64,000 bases of DNA from Mobula hypostoma (taxonomy: Eukaryota). The stretch spans positions 129,272,001-129,336,000 of the forward strand of contig NC_086097.1 in the NCBI RefSeq assembly GCF_963921235.1. The letters run 5' to 3'. Shown here in pieces: positions 1 through 53,050 of the stretch. Position 1 is the stretch's first letter. The number at the start of each line of letters is the position of its first letter. The notes beneath the pieces were generated by a model. It saw nothing but the letters and a program-made list of their open reading frames with translations, was not told the origin of the DNA and searched no databases. The position numbers and the translations under genes are program-made.

Positions 1-23
1 AGCAGCTACCCTAACCACTACCA

Positions 24-238
24 GCTGGTGGTGTAGTGGCACCCACACCGGACTTCGAGGCAAGTGTTCCCAGGTTCAGATCCAGCCACTTCCTTGCCCA
101 CTTTCTGTCCACACTGGGTCGAGTGTCGAGTGAGCAACTTGTCCTTATGAAAAACAGGCAAAGAAAACACGCTAAAAAATGGCTAGGATGTCGCCCATTG
201 CGCCACAAGTCGGAGAAAGGAACAGCAACAACAACAAC
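24..238 (+). mobile_element. tRNA-derived SINE with (AAC)n tail
   Basis: Pol III A-box-like TGGTGTAGTGG near 29-39, B-box-like GGTTCAGATCC near 73-83, and an AACAGCAACAACAACAAC tail ending at about 238. Confidence 0.75.
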
Positions 239-707
239 TCTAAGGATGTGATGCAGATCTTTAAACCAAAGCTGTCTGCCCCACAGTATGTCTCTTATTT
301 CCATTTCCTGCATTCCCAAAGGAACACACCACTGAAAGATGTATTCCGAAGACTGTAAAGCCTTTTGGGATATCTTGATATCCAGAAAGGTGCTACATTC
401 AAGTGCAAGTTCTTTGGAACTTATCTTCTTTCTACTTTTATTCCTTCCTAATGTATGACATGCTGTGACTTTACAGTATCACGTGCCTTATATTGTAACC
501 TTGCAGAATTTTTTGTTATTTAGGCCTCACTGAAGGATAGTTTGAACTATAATTTACAACGTCTAAGTTATCCTATTTCTTTCCTGAGTTGTAAAGGACT
601 CAGCACGATGCACCACAGAAACTGAAGGTGATTGTTCAGCGCTTTGGGCATAGTACACAATTCATGAGTTTGTGGCTGGTTTTGTGTCCCATTTCTGGCT
701 CTCTCAA

Positions 708-995
708 AGTTCAATGTTCAAAGCCAATTTATCATCAAAGCACTTATATATCACCATATCCTAGCTTGTGATTCATTTTATTGCAGGCATTTGAGGGAAA
801 TTAAAGAAATACAACAAAATTTATGAAAAACTGTAAATGACAAAAATGGACAACTAATGTGCAAAAGAAGACAAATTGTGGAAATAATAAAATAAAGTAA
901 ATAAATAATGCTGAATGGTGGAGTCCTTGAAAGTGAGTCTGTTGGTTGTGGAGTTAGTTTAGCATTGAGGTGAGTGAAGTTATCCATGCTGGTTC
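708..995 (-). mobile_element. 3' UTR fragment of a Rex1/Babar-type LINE or derivative
   Basis: Reverse-complement similarity to the 3' end at 12600-12862, with a (TTTGAA)-like tail. Confidence 0.55.
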
Positions 996-1139
996 AGAAA
1001 CTTCATGATTAACTGTTCTGTTTTGGCTCCATTTTCATTCTTACACTGAATGAGCAAGAATTGATCAGTCCCTATGAAATTTAATATTGAGTAATTGTGC
1101 TCTTTTGTAGCAAAAAGCTCCTTACCTTTCCCACTTATA

Positions 1140-1697
1140 GACAGAGAACAGTGCAGCTGAGGTATGGGCCTTTTGGCCCACAATGTGAGTGCTGAGCATG
1201 ATTTAAAATCAAATAAATCCCTTCTGCTTGCACGCAATCTATATCCCTCCAATCCATGCATATTCATGTACCTATCTAAAAGCCCCCAAAATGCCATTTT
1301 TGTGTCTGTTTCTACTACCACTGCTAGTAGTACATTCCAGGCACCTGCCACTCTGTGTGTAAAAAAAAAAGGGCCCTGAATATCCCTTTTAAACTTTTCC
1401 CTTTTTGCTTTACAGCTATACCCTCTAAATTTCAAGATTTCTACCTTGAGAAAATGACTCAGAATATCTACCCTATCTATAATTCTCTTAATTTTATACA
1501 TTTCTATCAGGTCTCCTCTTAGCCTCTGAAGCTCCGTGGAAAATAATCCGAGTTTATCCAAATCATTATTGCTCATACCCTCTAATCCTGTTGAACCTTT
1601 TCTGACCCTCTCCAAAGCTTCCTCATCTTTCCTGTAATGTGATGGCCAGAACCACATGCAATACTCAAATGTGCAGCCTAACCAAAGTAATATACGG
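1140..1697 (-). mobile_element. CR1 LINE 3' fragment (ORF2 C-terminus plus 3' UTR), decayed
   Basis: ORF 980-1657 encodes CR1 C-terminal motifs (LGLFSTELQRLRGDLIEMYKI, FFTHRVAGAWNVL). Confidence 0.9.
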
Positions 1698-2089
1698 TAT
1701 TGTTGTGAAAGTACAAATCTTACTTTCTTCCTTGAATGGCCCGACTGTGATTTTATGATTATCTTTCATTACACTGAGGACTATTTTTTTCCTCAATATC
1801 AGCCCCTGCCACAATCTGAAAAGCAGAAATCAGACATTCTCAGGGACTATAAATGTAATCTCTGGGATTCCTTCTCTTGGTAGAATTCCTTTTGTTAACA
1901 TTAATTTCCTTAGGATATGGGGATTTCTGGCAGGTCCAGCATTTGTTTCCTATTCCTTATTGCCCTGGAACTTAATTGGTTTGCTGGACCATTCCAGGGG
2001 CATCAAAGGCAGAATGGTTTCCTATAAGCAACATACATCAAAGTTGCTGGTGAACGCAGCAGGCCAAGCAGCATCTATAGGAAGAGGCG

Positions 2090-2127
2090 CAGTCGACGTT
2101 TCAGGCCGAGACCCTTCGTCAGGACTA
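2090..2127 (-). ncRNA. Second hammerhead motif copy on the inverted arm
   Basis: Exact reverse complement of 3085-3122. Confidence 0.8.
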
Positions 2128-2418
2128 ACTGAAGGAAGAGTGAGTAAGGGATTTGAAAGCCGGAGGGGGAGGGGGAGATGCAAAATGATAGGAGAAGACA
2201 GGAGGGGGAGGGATAGAGTCGAGAGCTGGACAGGTGATAGGCAAAAGGGGATACGAGAGGATCATGGGACAGGAGGCCTAGGGAGAAAGGTGGGGGGGGG
2301 TGACTCAGAGGATGGGCAAGAGGTATATTCAGAGGGACAGAGGGAGAAAAAGGAGAGTGAGAGAAAGAATGTGTGCATAAAAAGGAGTAACAGCTAGGGT
2401 ACGAGGGGGAGGTGGGGC

Positions 2419-2712
2419 CTAGCGGAAGTTAGAGAAGTCAACGTTCATGCCATCAGGTTGGAGGCTACCCAGACGGAATATAAGGTGTTGTTCCTCCAAC
2501 CTGAGTGTGGCTTCATCTTTACAGTAGAGGAGGCCGTGGATAGACATGTCAGAATGGGAATGGGATGTGGAATTAAAATGTGTGGCCACTGGGAGATCCT
2601 GCTTTCTCTGGCGGACAGAGCGTAGATGTTCAGCAAAGCGGTCTCCCAGTCTGCGTCGGGTCTCACCAATATATAAAAGGCCACATCGGGAGCACCGGAC
2701 GCAGTATATCAC
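2419..2712 (-). pseudogene. Penelope GIY-YIG endonuclease domain (5'-truncated, frame intact)
   Basis: IYCVRCSRCGLLYIGETRRRLGDRFAEHLRSV...VATHFN...EEQHLIFRLGSLQPDGMN matches the GIY-YIG pattern with the CxxC and His residues typical of Penelope-like elements. Confidence 0.93.
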
Positions 2713-3084
2713 CCCAGTCGACTCACCTTATATTCCGTCTGGGTAGCCTCCAACCTGATGGCATGAACATTGACTTCTCTAACTTCCGCTAGGCCCCACC
2801 TCCCCCTCGTACCCTAGCTGTTACTCCTTTTTATGCACACATTCTTTCTCTCACTCTCCTTTTTCTCCCTCTGTCCCTCTGAATATACCTCTTGCCCATC
2901 CTCTGGGTCACCCCCCCCCCATCTTTCTCCCTAGGCCTCCTGTCCCATGATCCTCTCGTATCCCCTTTTGCCTATCACCTGTCCAGCTCTCGGCTCTATC
3001 CCTCCCCCTCCTGTCTTCTCCTATCATTTTGCATCTCCCCCTCCCCCTCCGGCTTTCAAATCCCTTACTCACTCTTCCTTCAGT

Positions 3085-3122
3085 TAGTCCTGACGAAGGG
3101 TCTCGGCCTGAAACGTCGACTG
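3085..3122 (+). ncRNA. Minimal type I hammerhead ribozyme motif in Penelope 3' repeat
   Basis: TAGTC-CTGACGA-AGG-GTCTCGG-CCT-GAAAC-GTC-GACTG. Contains the core CUGANGA and GAAA, a GUC cleavage triplet, stem I TAGTC/GACTG, a short stem II and a palindromic ACGU in place of stem III. Confidence 0.8.
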
Positions 3123-3799
3123 CGCCTCTTCCTATAGATGCTGCTTGGCCTGCTGCGTTCACCAGCAACTTTGATGTATGTTGCTTGAATTTCCAGCATC
3201 TGCAGAATTCCTGTTGTTATGGTTTCCTATAACTTCAATTAAGTACTTCAGTTACCTGCTGTCAAAATGTTCATTTTATTAATGACATCTTGTTTTTTTC
3301 ATTTGCTACCTTCGTTAAATTATTATATTCCTACACTTTTGTTTATCTACTACTATTGTTAATTATATCTGCACTTGACCACCATAGTATAACTACATAA
3401 GCAAGTACTATCAAATATCTTTGGACTTACAGCTTTTACCAATGTTTTAAAATATTCAAGTAACTTCTTTTCTAGTTCACCATGAATAGCCTCACGTTTC
3501 TGTTCACTGAAATATATCCACCAGAGTTCTGCCCAGTCAGCTGATTTACAAATGTGTCTTTGTAATTGCTTTACTAATTGTACTTTTAATACCACTAGTT
3601 TGTATCAGAAATTTGAATTCATTGCTCACAATTGTATTTATATCAATAATGCTAAAAATATTGTTAATTATGGCTTCAGCAATGATCCATTTTGGAATTC
3701 TTCCAGGCATTCATTACAGTTTGTATACACCCCTGCTTGTCGTCATCTGTCCCTGAAGCAATATTCCTAACAGGCCGATAACTTGCCTTTCTTTGGGAA

Positions 3800-4160
3800 A
3801 TTTATTCTTGGCTAGAAATCAGAGAAAATTCTGGGTTCCTGTCCCACTGCGGAAACCTGAGTATGAAAATTCTAGACTCTTACAGAGGGAGCGTCAGGGG
3901 AGCTGTTTTGCAGATGTGATGATAAATTGAAGTGCCTACTGCATTCATAGTATCATCTTAGTAGAAAACTGCAGATCCTATCCTGCCATCCTGGCCAATA
4001 TTTATTTGCCGCTCAACATAACTGGTCACATTTCTCTTTATGGGCACTTGCTTTGTGCAAATGGGCTGCTGCATTTCCAACATTGTTTTCCATATCAGTG
4101 ATCACATTTCAAAAGTGTTTAGCAAAGGAATGTAGAAGATATCACATAAATATCTCTTCT
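3800..4160 (+). mobile_element. Ancient Deu-domain SINE remnant
   Basis: TCCTGGCCAATATTTAT...CTTGCTTTGTGCAAATGGGCTGCTGCATTTCC resembles the Deu domain; related copies occur elsewhere in the window. Confidence 0.6.
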
Positions 4161-5973
4161 CCTTAGGCTTTGATTTTAACCAGTTGTTTGTTATGTGGAA
4201 ACGTATGAACTGCAGCCTGAAAATCTATATCAAACACATCATTTGACATTCACTTGAGTCTGACATTATTCAATTACTAAATAAACTTCAAACTGGTCAT
4301 TATAAATCCATGATGACTCCCCTAATCAGCTCGATTACTCTGTGCATGGTCGTTCACACATTTCCTGTAAAGGGTTGTAGACTACCATTTCTTGTTTTCT
4401 CTTTCACACCTCAGTTCAGTAGTATTTACTTTTACAATTTCCAATCTTCATTCCTTGAAGTGAGAGTGCTTTCGAAGATCATGTCTAAAGAAAAGGTGCA
4501 CTCATTTATAATAATGGGGAGAACCTCCTGGACCCAAAGACTTTTCGGTATTTATCACAAACAATGTTTTCCTGTTTAGTGAGTTCATTATTGAATCATT
4601 ATTTATTCCCCTGGAATGTCAGAAGTTCAATTCAGTCAAACTAACCACAACCAACACATAGTTGTTTTTCACTGGTGAATTGGAAAACAGATTAATAAAA
4701 GTGAGAAGCTATTTCATTAATTGGCTCAACAAAGCAAAAAATAATAGCTTCATAAAATTATTTTCCTTATTTGTATTACTAAATTCTTACTTTAGTACAG
4801 CAACTGCAATATTATAACACAGTACATAAATCAATATATTTCATTCAATGATGTGTCATTTGTAAATCGGGTATTGATGAGGTGTTGACATAAAGCTAAT
4901 TAATCTGAAGCCTCACTGTAATATTCATATGTTTCCTTAATTATGTTGTTCATCTTTGTCCACAAACATTGGCAGACAGTTGCCACTGCAAGGATTATGA
5001 AGTGACAAAGCTGTAAGTATAACTTCCGTATATTAAGTAAAAAATAAATAAATATTCCTTCAACCCTGGTAAAGGCATAAAAATAATCCAAGAAATACTA
5101 GTAGTCTACTTCAATGGTGCTTTATTTCCCCAGCATAATGATTCCACATACTCATTAGGGGTACAGTAGTCCATCATTGTTTGATGGATTTGTTTGCAAA
5201 CAATATATTTTATCCCGTATTCCTAGGCTAGGACCAAACTCATAAATGATTATGCAAAGTTACATTTGCATTGGTAGGCAAGCAGGACAAAATGACATAC
5301 CAAATATATTGAGCCCATTGTAATTCTTTGATCATTTTAGGATTACATATTTCACTGAAGACTGAGGTCAAGAGAGAGAAAAATGCTGTTGCTTTTCTAA
5401 TAAAAACCACCATGTTATTTTCATAGATACATTTTGATCACCAGAAAAGCCAAGCTTTTCAGATTTGGAAAGATGTTTTTAACTATTTGAAAAAAAATAT
5501 TTTTACAGTTTAACAATACTTTGTAGTAAAATGAACATCTTTTGTATAGAATTTATGTGTAATTTATATTTTTCTTGCAAATGCTCTCTGTATATGGAGA
5601 TATGCCTGGGATGCTACTGCAATCAAGTTTGTTACTGCACCTGTGAATAAGTGTATTTGTGCATGTGACAATAAAATTTACTTTGATTTTGACAATACTT
5701 TTGGTTCTCTTCTCATCAACAGATTCCTATCTACTAAATTTAATGTTTGGAACCTTGGTTTGGTGGAGAATTTTTTTAAAAACTGTTCCAGTTTATAACA
5801 AATGGGCCAATCATAAGGTAAATATCCCTTCTAAAGTAACCTGACATCAAGAATATCAATATACTTAGACAGATTCAGACCCAACACAGCACAGGCAGAC
5901 CTTAATGGAAACAGTTGATGCTGGACTTTCACTATTCCCTGTTTCCTGCTGGTAGCTTATAGTAATAAGTTTA

Positions 5974-6908
5974 TAGTCATAGTCATAGTCATAGTCATAC
6001 CTTATTGATCCCGGGGGAAATTGGTTTTCGTTATAGTTGCACCATAAATAATAAATAATAATAGAACCATAAATAGTTAAATAGTAATATGTAAATTATG
6101 CCAGTAAATTATGAAATAAGTCCAGCACCAGCCTATTGGCTCAGGGTGTCTGACCCTCCAAGGGAGGAGTTGTAAAGTTTGATGGCCACAGGCAGGAATG
6201 ACTTCCTATGATGCTCTGTGCTGCATCTCGGTGGAATGAGTCTCTGGCTGAATGTACTCCTGTGCCCACCCAGTACATTATGTAGTGGATGGGAGACATT
6301 GACCAAGATGGCATGCAACTTAGACAGCATCCTCTTTTCAGACACCACTGTCAGAGAGTCCAGTTCCATCCCCACAACATCACTGGCCTTACGAATGAGT
6401 TCGTTGATTCTGTTGGTGTCTGCTACCCTCAGCCTGCTGCCCCAGCACACAACAGCAAACATGATAGCACTGGCCGCCACAGACTCGTACAACATCCTCA
6501 GCATCGTCCAGCAGATGTTAAAGGACCTCAGTCTCCTCAGGAAATAGAGACGGCTCTGACCCTTCTTGTAGACAGCCTCAGTGTTCTTTGACCAGTCCAG
6601 TTTATTGTCAATTAGTATTCCCAGGTATTTGTAATCCTCCACCATATCCACACTGACCCCCTGGAATAAAACAGGGGTCACCGGTACCTTAGCTCTCCTC
6701 AGGTCTACCACCAGCTCCTTAGTCTTTTTCACATCAAGCTGCAGATAATTCTGCTCACACCATGTGACAAAGTTTCCTACCGTAGCCCTGTACTCAGCCT
6801 CACCTCCCTTGCTGATGCAACCAACTATGGCAGAGTCATCCAAAAACTTCTGAAGCTGACAAGACTCTGTGCAGTAGTTGAAGTCCGAGGTGTAAATGGT
6901 GAAGAGAG
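5974..6908 (-). mobile_element. Rex1/Babar-type LINE, 5'-truncated (RT C-terminal half plus 3' UTR)
   Basis: 263-aa ORF with LQKFLDDSAIVGCI, KKTKELVVDLRR, YKYLG and KKGQSRLYFLRRLRSF; (TATGAC)n tail at 5974-5998. Confidence 0.88.
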
Positions 6909-7402
6909 ATACCAGCACAAACAAAGTTAGGAATTGCTCTCCAAATCAGCAACCACCAAATTAATGCAATGCTAATGTGGGGGTACTGAATTGTATTGCT
7001 CTCCAGAGGATATTTTCATAATGACTATCTATAGCAATGTAGCCAATCATAAATTTTCTGCCAGATTAATCCTTGAATTTTCAAATAGATAGAAAAAGTC
7101 AACTGAGGAAAAGCAAATATTGACATAACTCGCAGAACAGCACCTGAAAAAAGAAACCTTTCCTGACATAATCATGGAAACTCAGTAATAAAACAGAGGA
7201 CTGTGCTTGAATATTTAGAAGAATTTAATTCATGAAGATAATAATGTTTGTATGCATTACCGTGCAAAAATAGCATGAGAATGATGGTAATCAGCAAAGG
7301 AAGGGTTTGCAATTAAGTAGCATTTCTCATAACATCAGGATCTGTGAAGCATTTAACAATGAATAAAAAACCTTGAAATGTAGTCACAGTTGTAATATCG
7401 AG

Positions 7403-7700
7403 AATAGAATCAGATTCAGAATCAGAATCAGCTTTATTATCACCTGCATGTGACGTGAAATTTGTTAACTTAGCAGCAGCAGTTCAATGCGGTACATAAT
7501 CCAGCAGAGCAAGAGAAAAAAACAATAATAATAAATAAAATAAAACATAATAATAAACAAACAAGTAAATCAATTGAATAGGTTTTTAAAAATGTGCAAA
7601 AACAGAAATACTGTATATTAAAAAAAGTGAGGTAGTGTCCAAAGATTCAATGTCCATTTAGGAATCGGATGGCAGAGGGGAAGAAGCTGTTCCTGAATTA
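7403..7700 (-). mobile_element. Rex1/Babar-type LINE 3' end with (ATTCTG)n tail
   Basis: Same sequence family as 57794-58335, 61778-62021 and 24400-24908. Confidence 0.75.
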
Positions 7701-8429
7701 CAACAAATTACAACAGGATCTTTTACAAACTTTTAGAGTCTAACCTGGAAGAGACGCCTCGGCTAGAGTAGTACAACACTCTGAAATATGGCCTAGGTTA
7801 TGTGCGCAAGTGATGTTCTTTCTCCTTCCAGGATATCCTGCAGGTGAGGGGTTTGACCTCAACTTCATTCCAAGGAGCCACCCGAGACTTATTGTGCATC
7901 GTCATCTCAGCCAGGTTATTTAAAAGTCTAATATTAAACTAGTCGTCTGTATTCCAGTGGGTTATCTATTTTAGATGTGGAGTCTGAACTCATCAATATT
8001 ATTGTGCCCCATACTGAATGGTGATGAATGTCTTATCCGAAGTATTGCAGTTGATCAGTCCCAATCCCAACCCCACCTCTTGTTGGCCCACTCCTTTAAA
8101 TATCTCGCCAATTTTCCCTTAAACCTCTGTTCATGAATCTCCACTAACTCCCTGGGCAGTTCATACTATACCTATACTTTTACTGCTTCAAGTGATCACT
8201 CCTGTAAACCATGCTCATTAAGACAGTGGGAATTTGAATCCAAATTTGTAAATAGTAAAGAGGATGGAGATGCTCTGGAAAGAACAAGAGGAATCAAATG
8301 TGATTGATTGGGTTACTGATGTTGACAGCATTTTGTGGAGCAAGCTCCTAGAAATAGGAGATGTGCTTGGTTTCGTTTTTTTGCTCCTATATTCAATGTC
8401 ATGCAAGAGTCACAGATTGTCACTATGGA

Positions 8430-8800
8430 CTTGTGGGGAGACTAATGTACCAATAATCAAAACAACCAACAGGTCAGAACTAGGAAATTATAAATCCATT
8501 ATCTTGACTCTAGTTATAGGCAAATCGCTGGAGGGCATCATTAGAGATAGTCTGTGTGACCACCTGGACAGGCAAGGAGTCATTAGAGACACTCTCATCA
8601 TGGCTTCTGAAAAGGATATTTATGGCTCAGCAACCTGATTTGATTATCCAGAGGAAATTACTTGGTTGTGGAATGAAGGTGCCCTGTTGGTACTGGTATT
8701 TGGAATTTCCTAATGTTCACTCTAGGTTACTTTTTGAGATTGAGACATATCCAGGATTATATTATGACTTGATTTTATTCCAATTAGTAGAAGTGGTCAT
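8430..8800 (+). mobile_element. Old CR1 RT fragment
   Basis: Translation NVPIIK...GNYKSIILTLVIGKSLEGIIRD resembles CR1 NVTPLFK...GNYRPVSLTSVVGK. Confidence 0.7.
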
Positions 8801-9584
8801 TAATATGTTTATGTATAGAGAATGGTCATTGTGTTCCTCAGGAATAGGTTTTAAGATCAGGCAAGGTCTAGAGGAAGGACCCATTTCCCTTAGCACAGAG
8901 GTCAGTAAGTTATTAGAAGTGAGTTCGGGGTTTGTTTTACCATGGAGGTGGAGGTGAGCTCTGGAACTGACAACCTGAAAGAATTTTGAGGCACTGACTC
9001 TCTTCAGATAGAAAGGGGCTGGATGTACATGTGAAGAGCTACCCGTCTCATCAGAGTACAATACAGGAGGCTATTCAGCCCTATGACTGTGTGACAGTCC
9101 ATGTGAAAGGCAATCTATTTGTTTCTTTTACACCCGTGTTTTCCTCAATATTTCTGCAATATCATTTTTACTTTCAATTATTCAACCAACATATATAATT
9201 CGAAGACAAACCATACATTCTGTGAATTACTCTTTCTTCATTGCTTTGGGTCCTTTTGGAAATCATCTTAAATCTGTGCCTTCTTGTTATTATTACTTCA
9301 GCTGCACAAAACAGGTTGCATTTCTTCATGTCACTTAAACCCCTTTGGATTTTAAACATGTTGCTCATGTTGCTCCATTCAAATATTAATAATAATATTC
9401 ATTATCTTGTAAATCTTGTGCTTAAATCATGTTGGTGTGTAGCCTGCGCTCTCTTTTGGGATGTCGATTATGGGGCTCCGTTGTAGTTTCAATATATGTT
9501 TAGATTTTTCCCTGGAATCTTTTGGTAAATGTTTTCAACATAAAGTAATTTTGAAACCATAATTTTTGTATCAGTAATGTACTT

Positions 9585-9940: not shown

Positions 9941-11061
9941 CATTGCACCAGTACACAACCTCCCAGTCTCTCCTCCCTTATGCCACAAACCCAGAGAGGG
10001 GACCTATACACCAGTATTTACAGTATTCCTTTCTCCCTCATGGGATTCCTTAGCTTTAACTGCATTTATACCATTTGCCTCAACTGCTCCTGTGGGTAAC
10101 AAATTCTGCATTCTAATTCCTCTCTGGGGAAAAGAAACTTTCCTTGGATATTACTGGATTTATAGCATCTATGGTCCTTTGAATGTTACAATATGATTGC
10201 AGCAATAATTGTATTTGTAACTTAGTATTTATACATCTTTAACACTGAGGATTAATTTCACTGGAGTGCCAAATCATTTTCCACAATCACTTGAACCTTT
10301 GGAGAAATTGTCGATCTATAACCAGTGGCTTCACATGGATTAAAATTAAAACAAAATGTTACTACAGATTGGGATCACGCAAGAAGATTTTTGATTCTAA
10401 GCAAAAAAAAAGTGGAAGTCAAACCAAATTAAACATATAATTTCACAGACAAATAGGGTTATAAAGCACAGAAACAGGCCATTTAGCTAATATTGTCCAT
10501 GCTGACCTTACTGAGCTAGTCAGTCCAGATTTTTTGTCTGTAATGCTGGTGTTTAGTTATATTATTCCTTGGAAGAATCTGGAAGGAAGATGAAGATAAG
10601 AGCTCAGGCAGCCTTTGCCTAGATAGCACCACAGCCTTTGGCTCTTCACCATCAAATCTTGGCCCACACCAGCTCCCATGATCAAGCCTCAAACTCCCAA
10701 TTATGGCCTTGTCCTCCCACCCACCTAACTCTGACTCTCACCCAGCAGATAGTTAAGACCCACCCACATCTTAAACCCATGCTCAAATATTAATCTTAAA
10801 CTGCAGATGCTGGAAATATAAATAGAAAATACCTGAGGTACTTGAGTATTTGCAGTAGCTGCAGAGGGAGAAAAAATGTTAACATGTCAAATAATGAACT
10901 CTACTTCAGGTTTTATAACATAAGTGGTGGAATTTTATTACAGAAGCTACTGATTGGTACGTGCAGTGTAGTTTCCAACTAAAGTTAAACTGTCTTGATT
11001 CCTCTGGATGTGTGGTTCAGTTGTTCCTCAAGGCAGCAAGGCAGACCTAGTATTATCCAAC

Positions 11062-11185
11062 CAACACACACAAAATATACTGGTGGAATGCAGCAGGCTA
11101 GGTAGCATCTATAGGAAGAGGTACAGTTGACATTTCGGGCCAAGACCCTTCGTCAGGACTAACTGAAAGAAGAGATAGTAAGAGT
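11062..11185 (-). mobile_element. Penelope 3' repeat fragment with variant hammerhead motif (11124-11161)
   Basis: Similar to 2030-2150; minus strand reads TAGTCCTGACGAAGGGTCTTGGCCCGAAATGTCAACTG. Confidence 0.8.
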
Positions 11186-11189
11186 ATTG

Positions 11190-12862
11190 TCCAGTGGTTT
11201 ACAATCATTTTAATCAAATTCAATCAATCTATACAATATCTCGGCCACTGTGCCTTACTGCAACCTCCTTCACGAAGTTCGGGACTGGTGACCCAGGAAA
11301 GTACAAGAGGTTCAGGTCTGACCTCCGGAAAGCTATCTCACATGCACAGTGGCAATTCCAGACTAAACTTGATTGACAGAAGGATGCTTGACAGCTGCAG
11401 CAGGGCCTGAATGCCATCATCTCATTCAAAGCAAACCCAAGCAACAGAAGTGACAAGAAGGTTTTTCTCAAAGCCTTTTATGCTCACCTTGACTTGACAG
11501 AACCTGGAGGCACCTTCATAAATTCCCACACCACCTGACGACCCTATGATCTTAGTATGATTTTAGAAGCCAACATGAGAACATCATTCAGGAAGGTGAA
11601 CCTGTGGAAAGCATCTGGCCCAGACGGTGTACCTGGCCAAATCCTGCAGACCTATGATCATCATGTACAAGGGGTGATTGATACGTTTTTGGCCTAAGGT
11701 GGAAGGAGTCAATTTTAGAAAACCTAGCACATTTATTTTTCAACATAGTCCCCTCCTACATTTACACATTTAGTCCAGCGGTCGTGCAGCAGACGGGTCC
11801 CTTCTTTGTAGAAGTTGGCATCTTGGACCTCCAGAAAGTGGTCCACAGCAGGGGTGATTGATAAGTTTGTGGCCTAAGGTAGAAGGAGATGAGTTATTAA
11901 CTTCAAACTTTCTGTATAATCACTCAAAGAGTTGAACTGCATGTGCATGTAATGAGAGCTGTATGACTCATCTCCTCCTACCTTAGGCCACCAACTTATC
12001 AATCACCCTTGCTGTGGACCAGTTTCTGGAGGTCCAGGACTCCAACTTCTAAAAAGAAGGGATCCGTATGCTCCATGACCGCTGGACTAGGTATGTAAAT
12101 GTAGGAGGGGAATATGTTGAAAAATAAATGTGCTAGGTTTTCTAAAATTGATTCCTTCTACCTTAGGCCACAAACTTATCAATCACCCCGTGTAAGTGCC
12201 GCCACAAAGAAGGCACAACAATGCCTCTACTCTCTCAGAAGTTTGCGCAATTTTGACACGTCATCTAAAATTTTGAAAACTTCTATTGGTGCACAGTAGA
12301 GAGTTCTGTATATTGATCGGCTACATCACGGCCTGGTTTGGAAACACTAATACCTAAGAATGAAAACGTCTACAAAAGGTGGTAGATATAACCCAGTCCC
12401 TGCAGGAAAATCCCTCTCCACCACTGAGCACATCTACAAGGATTGCCGTCACAAAAAGGCAGCATCCATCAGGGGCACTTGCCATTGGGAAAGAGGTACG
12501 GGAGCCTTATGTCCCACACCACCAGGTTCAGGAACGGTTCAACCATCAGGCTTCTGAACTAGTGTGGATAACTTCATTCACCTCAACTCTGAACTGAATC
12601 CATAACTTATGAACTCACCTTCAAGACTCTACAACTCATGTTCTCAGTATTATTCATTGATTTAATTGTTAGTTTGTTTAATTACAGTTTGATTTATTTT
12701 GTACATTGGTTGTTTGTCAGCCTTTGTGTGTAGTTTTTAATTGATTCTATTATATTTCTTTGTTTTATTATGAATGCCTGCAAGAAAAATAATCTCAGGG
12801 TTGTATATGGTGACACACTGTATATGTACTTTGATAATAAATTTACTTTGAAATTTGAACTT
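11190..12862 (+). mobile_element. Rex1/Babar-type LINE, decayed and internally deleted, interrupted by a mariner MITE
   Basis: Translations GDPGKYKRFRSDLRKAI, KASGPDGVPG and KKAQQCLYSLRSLRNF; 3' UTR ends AATAAATTTACTTTGAAATTTGAACTTT. Confidence 0.75.
11668..12192. mobile_element. Tc1/mariner-type palindromic MITE
   Basis: Flanked by TA (11666-67 and 12193-94). Termini CAAGGGGTGATTGAT / ATCAATCACCCCGTG. Inverted arms of about 230 bp. Confidence 0.9.
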
Positions 12863-14585: not shown

Positions 14586-14700
14586 CACAAACAAGAGAAA
14601 ATCTGCAGATGCTGGAAATCCAAGCAACACACACAAAGTGCTGGAGGAACTCAGCAGGCCAGGCAGCATCTATGGAAAAGAGTACAGTCCACGTTTTGGG
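14586..14700 (-). mobile_element. Penelope 3' repeat fragment
   Basis: CTGCAGATGCTGGAAATCCAAGCAACACACACAAAGTGCTGGAGGAACTCAGCAGGCCAGGCAGCATC, related to the reverse complement of 3130-3215. Confidence 0.8.
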
Positions 14701-14819
14701 CAGAGAACATCTAAGTATAGATGGAGCCCATTGAGAAGAGACTGGTTTGCACGACAGACTGAGTAACATCTAGTTATTCGTGACTTTTAACATGCTTTGA
14801 CTGTCTATTACATTCAGAG

Positions 14820-17643: not shown

Positions 17644-18075
17644 AACACATAAACACAAGGAAGTCTGCAGATGCTGGAAATCCAAAGCAACACACACAAA
17701 GTGCTGGAGGAACTCAACAGGTCAGGCAGCATCTATAGAAATGAATAAACAATCGACGTTTCAAGCCAAGACCCTTCTTCAGAACTGAGAAAAAAGGGAG
17801 AAGATACCAGAATAAATGGTGGGGGAATTGGAAGGAGGCTAGCTAGAAGGTGATTGGTGAAGCCAAGTGGGTGGGAAAGGTAAAGGGCTGGAGAAGAAGG
17901 AAGCTGATAGGAGAAGAGAGTGGACCGTAGGAGAAAGGAAGGGACCCGTGTGAATTGACGGGCAGATAAGAAAAGGTGAAAGGCAGAATGGGGAATAAAA
18001 GAAGAAAAATACATAAGAATATTGCAAAATTCAATGTTCATTCCATAAGGTTAAAAAGCGCCTAGACAGAAGATG
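17644..18075 (-). mobile_element. Penelope 3' repeat (older subfamily) with decayed hammerhead motif near 17753-17786
   Basis: Homologous to 52105-52500 and to the reverse complement of 40520-40835. Confidence 0.8.
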
Positions 18076-39000: not shown

Positions 39001-39524
39001 CAAATGATACCTAACATGCTCGTACTGTACATCAATTAATCTCTGCAAGCAAGGGTAAAAGAATGCATGTTTTGTGACTCAGGCTGTGTACCACCATCAC
39101 TGGATTATTGAGCATGGTCGAGGGGAAAGAACCTTAGGGATTCCAATGCAAAAGGGGGAGATTTAGCCCATTACACATCGTCATATAGTCACACAGAAAC
39201 AGCTCTTCAGGGTATCTGGTCCATGTTGACCAAGATACCCATCCAAGCTAGTTCCATTTGCCAGCTTTTGGCCCAGAGCCTTCAAACTTTTTCCCATCTA
39301 TATACCTGCCCAACTGACTTTTAAAAGCTGTTATTACTCCTGCTTCAACTCATTCCATAGTCTCCACCACCCTCTGTGTGGGGAAAGTTGTAGTTTTATA
39401 AATCAGTACGGAGACCCTACCTCAGTTCTCAACAGTGGACATTAAGAGGCTTTTAAATAAACACATGAGTGAGCAGGGAATTGATAGATGTGGTTCAAGT
39501 GCAGGCAGAAGACAATTAGTTTCA

Positions 39525-39714
39525 CACATTAAAGTTGCTGGTGAACGCAGCAGGCCAGGCAGCATCTCTAGGAAGAGGTACAGTCGACGTTTCAGGCCGA
39601 GACCCTACGTCGACTGTACCTCTTCCTAGAGATGCTGCCTGGCCTGCTGCGTTCACCAGCAACTTTGATGTGTGTTGCTTGAATTTCCAGCGTCTGCAGA
39701 ATTCCTGTCGTTTG
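39525..39714. mobile_element. Miniature fold-back Penelope insertion with 15-bp TSD, inside a CR1 3' end
   Basis: Arms 39523-39590 and 39607-39674 differ by one mismatch; AGACAATTAGTTTCA occurs at 39510-39524 and 39715-39729. Confidence 0.93.
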
Positions 39715-39914
39715 AGACAATTAGTTTCATTTGGTATCATGTTCAGCATTGTGGACTGAAGGGTCTGTTCTATGTTCTGTGTTCTGTATTCTGTTATGTT
39801 TCCCTATCACACATAGAGAATGCAGCCATGTTAGAAGTGACATATTTAAGATGACTAAACTATATGACTATTCATATTTAAGATGACTTGACTATATGTC
39901 TTCCCACCCTGTCT

Positions 39915-52104: not shown

Positions 52105-53050
52105 AGAGCAACACACATAAAATTCTGGGGGAACTCTATAGGCTAAGCAACATCGATGTTTCAGGCTGAGACCCCGCTTCAGGACTGGAAAGAAAGGGAG
52201 CAGTCGCCAGAATAAAAAGGTGGAGGAACGGGAAGGGGGACATCTAGAAGGTGATAGGTGAAGCCAGGTGAGTAGGAAAGGTAAAGGGCTGGAGAGGAAG
52301 GAATCTGCTAGGAAAGGAGAGTGGACCACAGGAGAAACGGAAGAAGGAGAGAATCCAGGGGGAAGTGATAGGCAGGTGAGAAGAGGAAAAAATCCAGAGT
52401 GGGGAATCGAAGAAGGGGAGAGGGGGAAGGAAATTTTTTTTACCAGAAAAAGAAATCGATATTCATACCATCAAGTTAGGGGCTCCTCAGATGGAATATA
52501 AGGTATTCCTCCTCCACCCTGTGTGTGGCTTCATCATGGCACAAGAGGAGGCCATGAACTGACATGTCGGTACAAGAATAAAAATCAGAAATAAAATGTT
52601 TGGACATGGGGAAGTTCTGCTTTTGGCGGATGGAGTGGAAGTGCTCAACAACGCAGTCCCCCAATTTACGAAGGGTCTCACCAATGTCGAGGAGATGCGT
52701 TGGGAGCACTGGGCACAATAGACGACCCCAGCAGATTCACAGGTGAAATGTGAATTCAGCTGGAAGGAATTTTTGGGGGCCCTGAATGAAGAGGAGGTGA
52801 ATGGACAGGGGTAGCAATTTGGACACTTGCAGGGATAAGTGCTGGGAGGGAGATTAGTGAGGAGGGACAAATAGACAAGGGATTATGAAGGAGAGATCCC
52901 TGTAGGAAGTGGAGAGAGGGTTGGAGGTAAAGATATGCTTGGTGGTAGGGGCCCTTTGGATATAGCAGAAGTTGCTGAGAACAATGTGTTGGCTGTGGAG
53001 GCTCATGGGGTCGTAGGTAACTATAAGAGCTTCGATCCTGGTGCTGGTGA
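52105..53050 (-). mobile_element. Penelope fragment (GIY-YIG region plus 3' repeat), decayed
   Basis: HFTCESAGVVYCAQCS / IGETLRKLGDCVVEHFHSI / EEEYLIFHL; decayed hammerhead motif near 52152-52188. Confidence 0.88.

Follow-up and report, generated by a model that had tools for sequence, protein, structure and literature searches.

A minimal hammerhead motif in a two-armed Penelope-like insertion of Mobula hypostoma as a probable passenger of retrotransposition

The hammerhead motif at positions 3085–3122 (forward strand) of the 64,000-nucleotide stretch of Mobula hypostoma DNA analysed here, referred to as the window, is very probably a passenger copy of a known minimal hammerhead, carried by a truncated, two-armed insertion of a Penelope-like element (PLE) whose fold-back is predicted to keep the motif inactive in read-through RNA. 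The motif, its palindrome, the dimer model and the inverted arrangement are already published (PMC4209133; PMC8557442). The ribozyme's job, if it has any, would be performed in the RNA of the active parent element and not at the window locus, and there it would probably be a weak cutter assisted by dimerization or by protein.

Sequence and structure place the motif in the minimal type I class, with a cut predicted after C3117. On the forward strand, stem I (3085–3089/3118–3122, TAGTC/GACTG) comprises five base pairs with an outer U·G pair and encloses the core segment CUGACGA (CTGACGA in the DNA; 3090–3096), a 3-bp stem II (3098–3100/3107–3109) and the core segments GAAA (3110–3113) and GTC (3115–3117), while the palindrome ACGU (ACGT in the DNA; 3113–3116) leaves helix III with neither stem nor loop. 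The coordinates given for the core, stem I and palindrome in a first-pass annotation all proved exact on re-checking, as did its report of an identical motif on the reverse strand of the inverted arm at 2090–2127, the reverse complement of which matches letter for letter. Its assignment to the minimal type I hammerheads of PLEs, a kind thought to need dimers (PMC4209133), is also supported, the motif having the core CUGANGA, GAAA and UH, palindromic positions 15.1–16.1, a 5-bp helix I and a 3-bp helix II. A structural descriptor matched 63 times in 862,800 bases from regions picked for holding the element, and not once in three block shuffles or in the reversed sequence; the exact motif pattern occurs 45,139 times genome-wide, against none for a control pattern. 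With the descriptor and genome-pattern controls both empty, the occurrence of the motif is not due to chance. In the covariance-model search suggested as a check, Rfam scans of 1–8000 and 3040–3170 returned no hammerhead family at E ≤ 10.

The 3-bp stem II as first drawn, closed by an A–U pair, is possible in the window copy but differs from the original register of the family. In the subfamily of the window copy, and in 58 of the 87 sampled copies that span the motif, position 3109 is U and the typical G10.1–C11.1 pair is absent; the stem of the window copy closes with G·U or A–U at equal energy, which makes the register of A3097 ambiguous here. A C at 3109, facing A3097 and leaving it unpaired, is present in 29 of the 87 copies, where it is tied to alleles of older subfamilies, and in six of ten copies of an older family (1,074 genome matches, with ten of 30 loci aligned). 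This C, in both the older alleles and the older family, shows that the original stem II is GGG/CCC with A3097 unpaired, as in PMC4209133.

The insertion that carries the motif (2014–3232) is young, 5′-truncated and composed of two head-to-head arms. Arm B (2724–3218, forward strand), itself a 5′-truncated copy, contains the last GIY-YIG codons with the stop codon that ends this domain (2790–2792), a pyrimidine-rich 3′ region, the hammerhead and a 32-nt tail (3187–3218) found in this arm only. Arm A (2026–2727, reverse strand) is a longer 5′-truncated copy that has no tail and retains 102 open C-terminal codons (2419–2727, reverse strand) encoding a GIY-YIG endonuclease domain (PF01541, E = 1.8e-5, above the cut-off). 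A 14-bp target-site duplication flanks the insertion on the left (2014–2027, forward strand, the last two nucleotides being common to the end of arm A) and on the right (3219–3232, forward strand). The arms align over 463 nt at 98.9% identity, with four substitutions and one indel, and their motifs are 995 nt apart; since the arms are young, the identity of the two motifs needs no selection. The insertion would have formed through target-primed reverse transcription at each of the two target ends, with initiation at two internal sites bounding the tail and joining of the arms through the 3-nt microhomology present at their junction (2724–2726). In one contig of a relative, the right flank apparently passes at 3220 into 464 nt of sequence unlike the tail, which is the pattern expected of an empty site. 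A second contig ends too near the site to inform on an orthologous insertion. Contigs of relatives, presumably derived from RNA, include the element at the family level without the unique flank, and so say nothing about expression.

The window holds further traces of the family. A second two-armed insertion (39510–39729), with a 15-bp target duplication (39510–39524 and 39715–39729), has arms that start at the equivalents of 3097 and 3113, and neither includes the whole core. Older copies of the end of the pseudo-LTR (pLTR) or of the GIY-YIG region, 71–83% identical, are found at 11059–11182, 14590–14706, 17652–17786 (reverse strand), 44443 (forward strand) and 52451–52740 (reverse strand), and the one at 17782 still matches the hammerhead descriptor. 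Another small repeat structure, made of direct and inverted repeats of 29–39 nt, lies at 11670–12000.

An anchor just downstream of the motif has 85,789 matches genome-wide. The motif is placed in the pLTR, 293 nt after the GIY-YIG stop and before the tail, and is repeated before the open reading frame (ORF) in partial tandems, the tail running on into the ORF's beginning at 396 places. The long ORF has its first ATG some 138 nt past the predicted cut site, and the motif is therefore wholly non-coding. In longer copies only, the same ORF encodes a reverse transcriptase upstream of the endonuclease, lost from the window copy; RVT_1 was matched in L089 with an E value of 5.7e-6 and 26.6 bits, below the cut-off of 29.6, and translations contain a YIDD motif. 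The C-terminal GIY-YIG domain, the partial tandems, the inverted truncated partner and a tail of 30–40 bp mark the element as an endonuclease-positive PLE. Family 3′ ends fall into two clusters, at about 3181–3189 and at 3212–3218 or just beyond. Longer copies also carry the linker CKRNKCYTC (CX4CX2C) before the endonuclease, and a CX2-5CxxC linker between reverse transcriptase and endonuclease is a mark of Neptune/Nematis (PMC8557442; PMC3846280); this linker points to Neptune/Nematis and not to Poseidon.

Several rearranged copies and divergent cores were also encountered. Four tail–ORF junctions spaced by 310 bp form a short tandem array at G000:C2:157816728–157817686, which may carry repeated hammerheads like a retrozyme. 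Two distant copies, at L005:850–900 and in L021 (G000:C1, near 0.40 and 1.82 Mb), have in common a junction that links an inverted N-terminal part of the ORF to the C-terminal part, a hint of either a duplication or the amplification of a rearranged subfamily. Cores resembling a hammerhead, but with an AGCT palindrome and a different stem II (L264, L267, L269 and L271), are perhaps relics of other lineages; a separate AGCT-palindrome lineage was rejected, with 11 matches, mostly decayed copies, against one in the control, and no compensatory covariation was found in that comparison.

The first-pass annotation had proposed a self-limiting RNA switch, in which competition between trans-dimerization and fold-back would set cleavage in host intronic RNA. 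An intact, identical motif kept in both arms, tens of thousands of compatible partner motifs in the genome and the weak cleavage of minimal hammerheads as dimers (PMC4209133) are what such a control could draw upon, but it is highly improbable. The predicted energies, which are nearest-neighbour equilibrium values ignoring tertiary contacts and proteins, leave no real contest, with −80.2 kcal/mol for the 38-bp sense/antisense duplex against −10.9 or −8.7 kcal/mol for a catalytic-type dimer. The hairpin of the whole insertion reaches −1091 kcal/mol in a predicted fold that pairs all 38 nt with 2090–2127, and a monomer with stems I and II (−5.6 kcal/mol) is predicted to prefer an inactive rod in which 3092–3095 pair with 3114–3117 (−11.7 kcal/mol). 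The duplex could be opened by helicases, by editing or by bound proteins; a gap of about 70 kcal/mol is too large for the switch to be supported. Moreover, because the arms diverge, the antisense arm would be made first on either strand, and about 360 bp could pair before the ribozyme emerges.

The two-armed inverted arrangement is, in addition, a routine insertion product. In samples taken within the initial 27 Mb of a single contig, 72 copies have a complete ribozyme; a full antisense hammerhead lies at most 4.5 kb upstream in 35 of these, with an identity of at least 85% in 29, a same-strand motif lies nearby in 12 of the 72, and among the first 100 exact matches close neighbours diverge in nine cases, converge in two and share a strand in two. 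Both dual hammerhead motifs on opposite strands (PMC4209133) and inverted truncated partners with a one-sided tail (PMC8557442; PMC3846280) have been described. The identity of young arms needs no selection, and the core shows none among genomic copies, as detailed below. Nor did a crude screen of ORFs, covering the window and 40 kb upstream of it, identify a host exon family; 491 unmasked ORFs were ranked and 27 scanned with Pfam, returning RVT_1, an ALKBH8_N match in a repeat and three matches below the cut-off. A 95-codon hydrophobic, GC-rich frame about 9 kb before the window (L107:1107–1391) has no Pfam or convincing PDB match.

The annotation's statement that RNA from either strand carries one monomer together with its antisense copy holds for read-through transcripts, but would fail for any transcript that begins within the pLTR, where the element's own start may lie. 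Such an RNA would contain a free monomer and no antisense arm, which counts against burial of the motif by fold-back. The positions at which family copies begin are informative in this respect. Their 5′ ends peak at 3080–3099, with a hazard of 0.016 and 0.018 per nucleotide (samples of n = 100 and n = 95) against 0.0012–0.0013 in 2725–3039, and a family-wide hot zone coincides with the 5′ edge of stem I (3083–3093, forward strand), where 45 of 194 copies start (hazard of 0.027 per nucleotide against 0.008 on either side, p < 1e-4). The peak is present in both tail classes (16 of 82 tailed and 29 of 112 tailless copies) and persists when each locus contributes a single arm (40 of 135 at risk). 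Among the 45 junctions, 30 join an antisense arm, nine abut the target duplication and six are unassigned; several use microhomology to stem I or GTC/GAC. By eye, short copies of the older family also tend to start at the hot zone.

Reverse-transcriptase stalling at the hairpin was rejected as the cause of this pile-up, because ends would be expected at 3123 or later and few are found there. A spliced template was likewise rejected: two donor–acceptor junction patterns gave no matches, and upstream of the 45 junctions there is neither element sequence in the sense orientation nor a common 9-mer. In contigs of relatives, no GT–AG joint was seen among the 15 listed of 161 joints. PLEs are known to retain introns, and an intron is compatible with the missing spliced copies. 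The stretch just before stem I (3066–3083), at the place where the intron of the D. virilis Penelope element ends, is branch-point-like, pyrimidine-rich and CAG-ended; some copies have TACTAAC there, and pyrimidines followed by CAG are likewise present in the older family. In L035 and L096 (reverse strand), which start at the equivalent of 3126 and lie 2.8 Mb apart, the 30-nt upstream flanks are nearly the same, reflecting either a repeated target or a duplication, and in L040, L045 and L104 a short fragment of the end of the tail lies inverted at the 5′ junction, suggesting priming from both target ends.

It is likely that the templates are uncleaved RNAs starting near the 5′ edge of stem I, run-off being the simplest reading, with annealing of cDNA through stem I or the GTC/GAC repeat as a real alternative for the inverted junctions. 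The sequence TTAGTCC at 3084–3090, within the hot zone, is taken here to be initiator-like, with A at 3086. If a start site at about A3086 were active in the pLTR, each arm would fire a short, outward, hammerhead-first transcript without an antisense arm, and such RNAs could dimerize in trans, with loss of the leading 32 nt. The hot-zone starts, in both tail classes and with one arm per locus, the nine that abut the target duplication directly, the initiator-like sequence and the tendency of the older family agree with this. It is nonetheless unlikely at the insertion studied, given that cDNA annealing at the 30 junctions with an antisense arm, several with microhomology, could make the peak, that no clear cap-derived extra G is seen at the 45 junctions, and that most such copies are probably silenced. 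In the Penelope element of D. virilis, moreover, the start precedes by 46 nt an intron whose end lies at helix I (PMC2377424; PMC4209133). For the Anolis element, uncleaved RNA is the main template (PMC11167929).

Starts at the cut site itself are rare in the sample (two of 194 at 3118). Genome-wide, raw counts of 536 at 3118, 287 at 3122 and 103 at 3112 become roughly 1,370, 740 and 550 after hand correction for flank composition and CpG decay at rates from spanning copies, an excess of about two-fold at 3118. By eye, about one third of 100 listed 3118 junctions have the letters that microhomology to the element itself would give (CAG 16, CCT 10, CGA 7), and the controls at 3122 and 3112 also include such junctions; the excess is no more than suggestive of some cleavage in parent RNA. 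A tentative picture, less likely than not, is that the element RNA starts at stem I, where a cap-proximal ribozyme would cut off a 32-nt capped leader, and that the copies form a fossil map of both RNA forms. If so, most short copies would represent run-off at the uncut end (3083–3093), and the approximately 1% at the cut site would record cleavage in vivo.

Preferential conservation of the core among genomic copies, which the first-pass annotation had set as a test, is not seen for decay after insertion. Of 194 copies (one duplicate having been dropped from 195), the 87 that span the motif were anchored outside it; with flank sites of subfamily-level variation set aside, non-CpG changes affect 13 of 870 core positions and 76 of 4176 flank positions (p = 0.57). 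Core changes at the flank rate indicate that inserted copies decay neutrally, and the motif is intact in 53 of the 87. Between subfamilies, changes occur at one of 38 positions in the motif and at nine of 57 in the flanks (p = 0.047); with the test restricted to the 11 positions of the strict core, the difference is not significant (p = 0.34). The single motif change is C to U at 11.1, with pairing kept. In the older family, the majority sequence of the motif departs at N7, at 11.1, at the outer base of stem I and at CpG sites alone, and upstream flanks are about 55% alike. As far as these sequence comparisons go, the motif is likely to be under selection in parent elements, with the subfamily test marginal.

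What is selected might not be catalysis. The motif may have ceased to be a working ribozyme even in the parent and be kept as a protein-binding, priming or promoter signal: younger subfamilies replaced the G10.1–C11.1 pair and still expanded (58 of 87 copies), the monomer is predicted to prefer a misfold, and insertion of the Anolis element in vitro needs no cleavage, nor do RNA-seq ends fall at its cleavage site (PMC11167929). This possibility has some weight but is the less probable one, considering that neither subfamilies nor families differ in the strict core while N7 varies, as catalysis would demand, that copies starting at the cut site are in mild excess and that, given its protein, the ribozyme of Anolis does cut (PMC11167929). 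It concerns the family, and is compatible with the passenger origin preferred for the window locus.

As one dead copy of a described motif, the window locus matters little. The family, on the other hand, is a good test bed for the question of what PLE hammerheads do in vivo (PMC4209133; PMC8557442; PMC11167929), as the stopping points of reverse transcription are preserved in over 85,000 young copies. The accumulation of 5′ ends at stem I provides a sharp prediction for cap and cleavage mapping. With approximately four in ten ribozyme-complete copies having a close antisense partner, the family, where transcribed, would also yield double-stranded RNA in large amounts. In a literature search limited mostly to openly available papers, no paper was found on PLE ribozymes of sharks or rays, on antisense control of such hammerhead motifs or on 5′ ends of PLE copies at stem I.

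Domesticated intronic hammerheads are canonical and single-copy. The motif described here, in contrast, is minimal, high-copy, young and neutrally decaying, with no Rfam match, and has in common with those of the amniote RECK and CTCL introns a type I architecture in vertebrate non-coding DNA (PMC6155905). A much closer likeness is found in the minimal hammerheads of metazoan PLEs (Cervera and De la Pena, 2014; PMC4209133), which are also type I motifs without helix III, with palindromic positions 15.2–16.2, a helix I of 4–5 bp, an unpaired base before stem II and a location in the pLTR, and which likewise occur as thousands of mostly solitary copies and as dual motifs on opposite strands. The two differ as follows: opposite-strand pairs lie 100–700 bp apart in that report against 995 nt here, stem II has 3 bp against 7–8 bp in Schistosoma, position 11.1 is U in the window subfamily instead of the typical C, and at least 45,139 exact, homogeneous copies compare with 2,000–9,000 reported for other genomes (PMC4209133). 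With Poseidon of Anolis carolinensis (Frangieh et al., 2024; PMC11167929), the family has in common two clusters of 3′ ends about 33 nt apart that bound the tail, a hammerhead just upstream and, probably, uncleaved RNA as the main template, the ORF starting at stem II in that element and about 138 nt past the cut site in the present one. Finally, the 5′ truncation, head-to-head inverted copy, one-end tail of 30–40 bp, target duplication, microhomology junction and C-terminal GIY-YIG domain are those of canonical endonuclease-positive PLE units (Craig et al., 2021; PMC8557442; Arkhipova et al., 2013; PMC3846280), from which the window insertion differs in nothing of kind.
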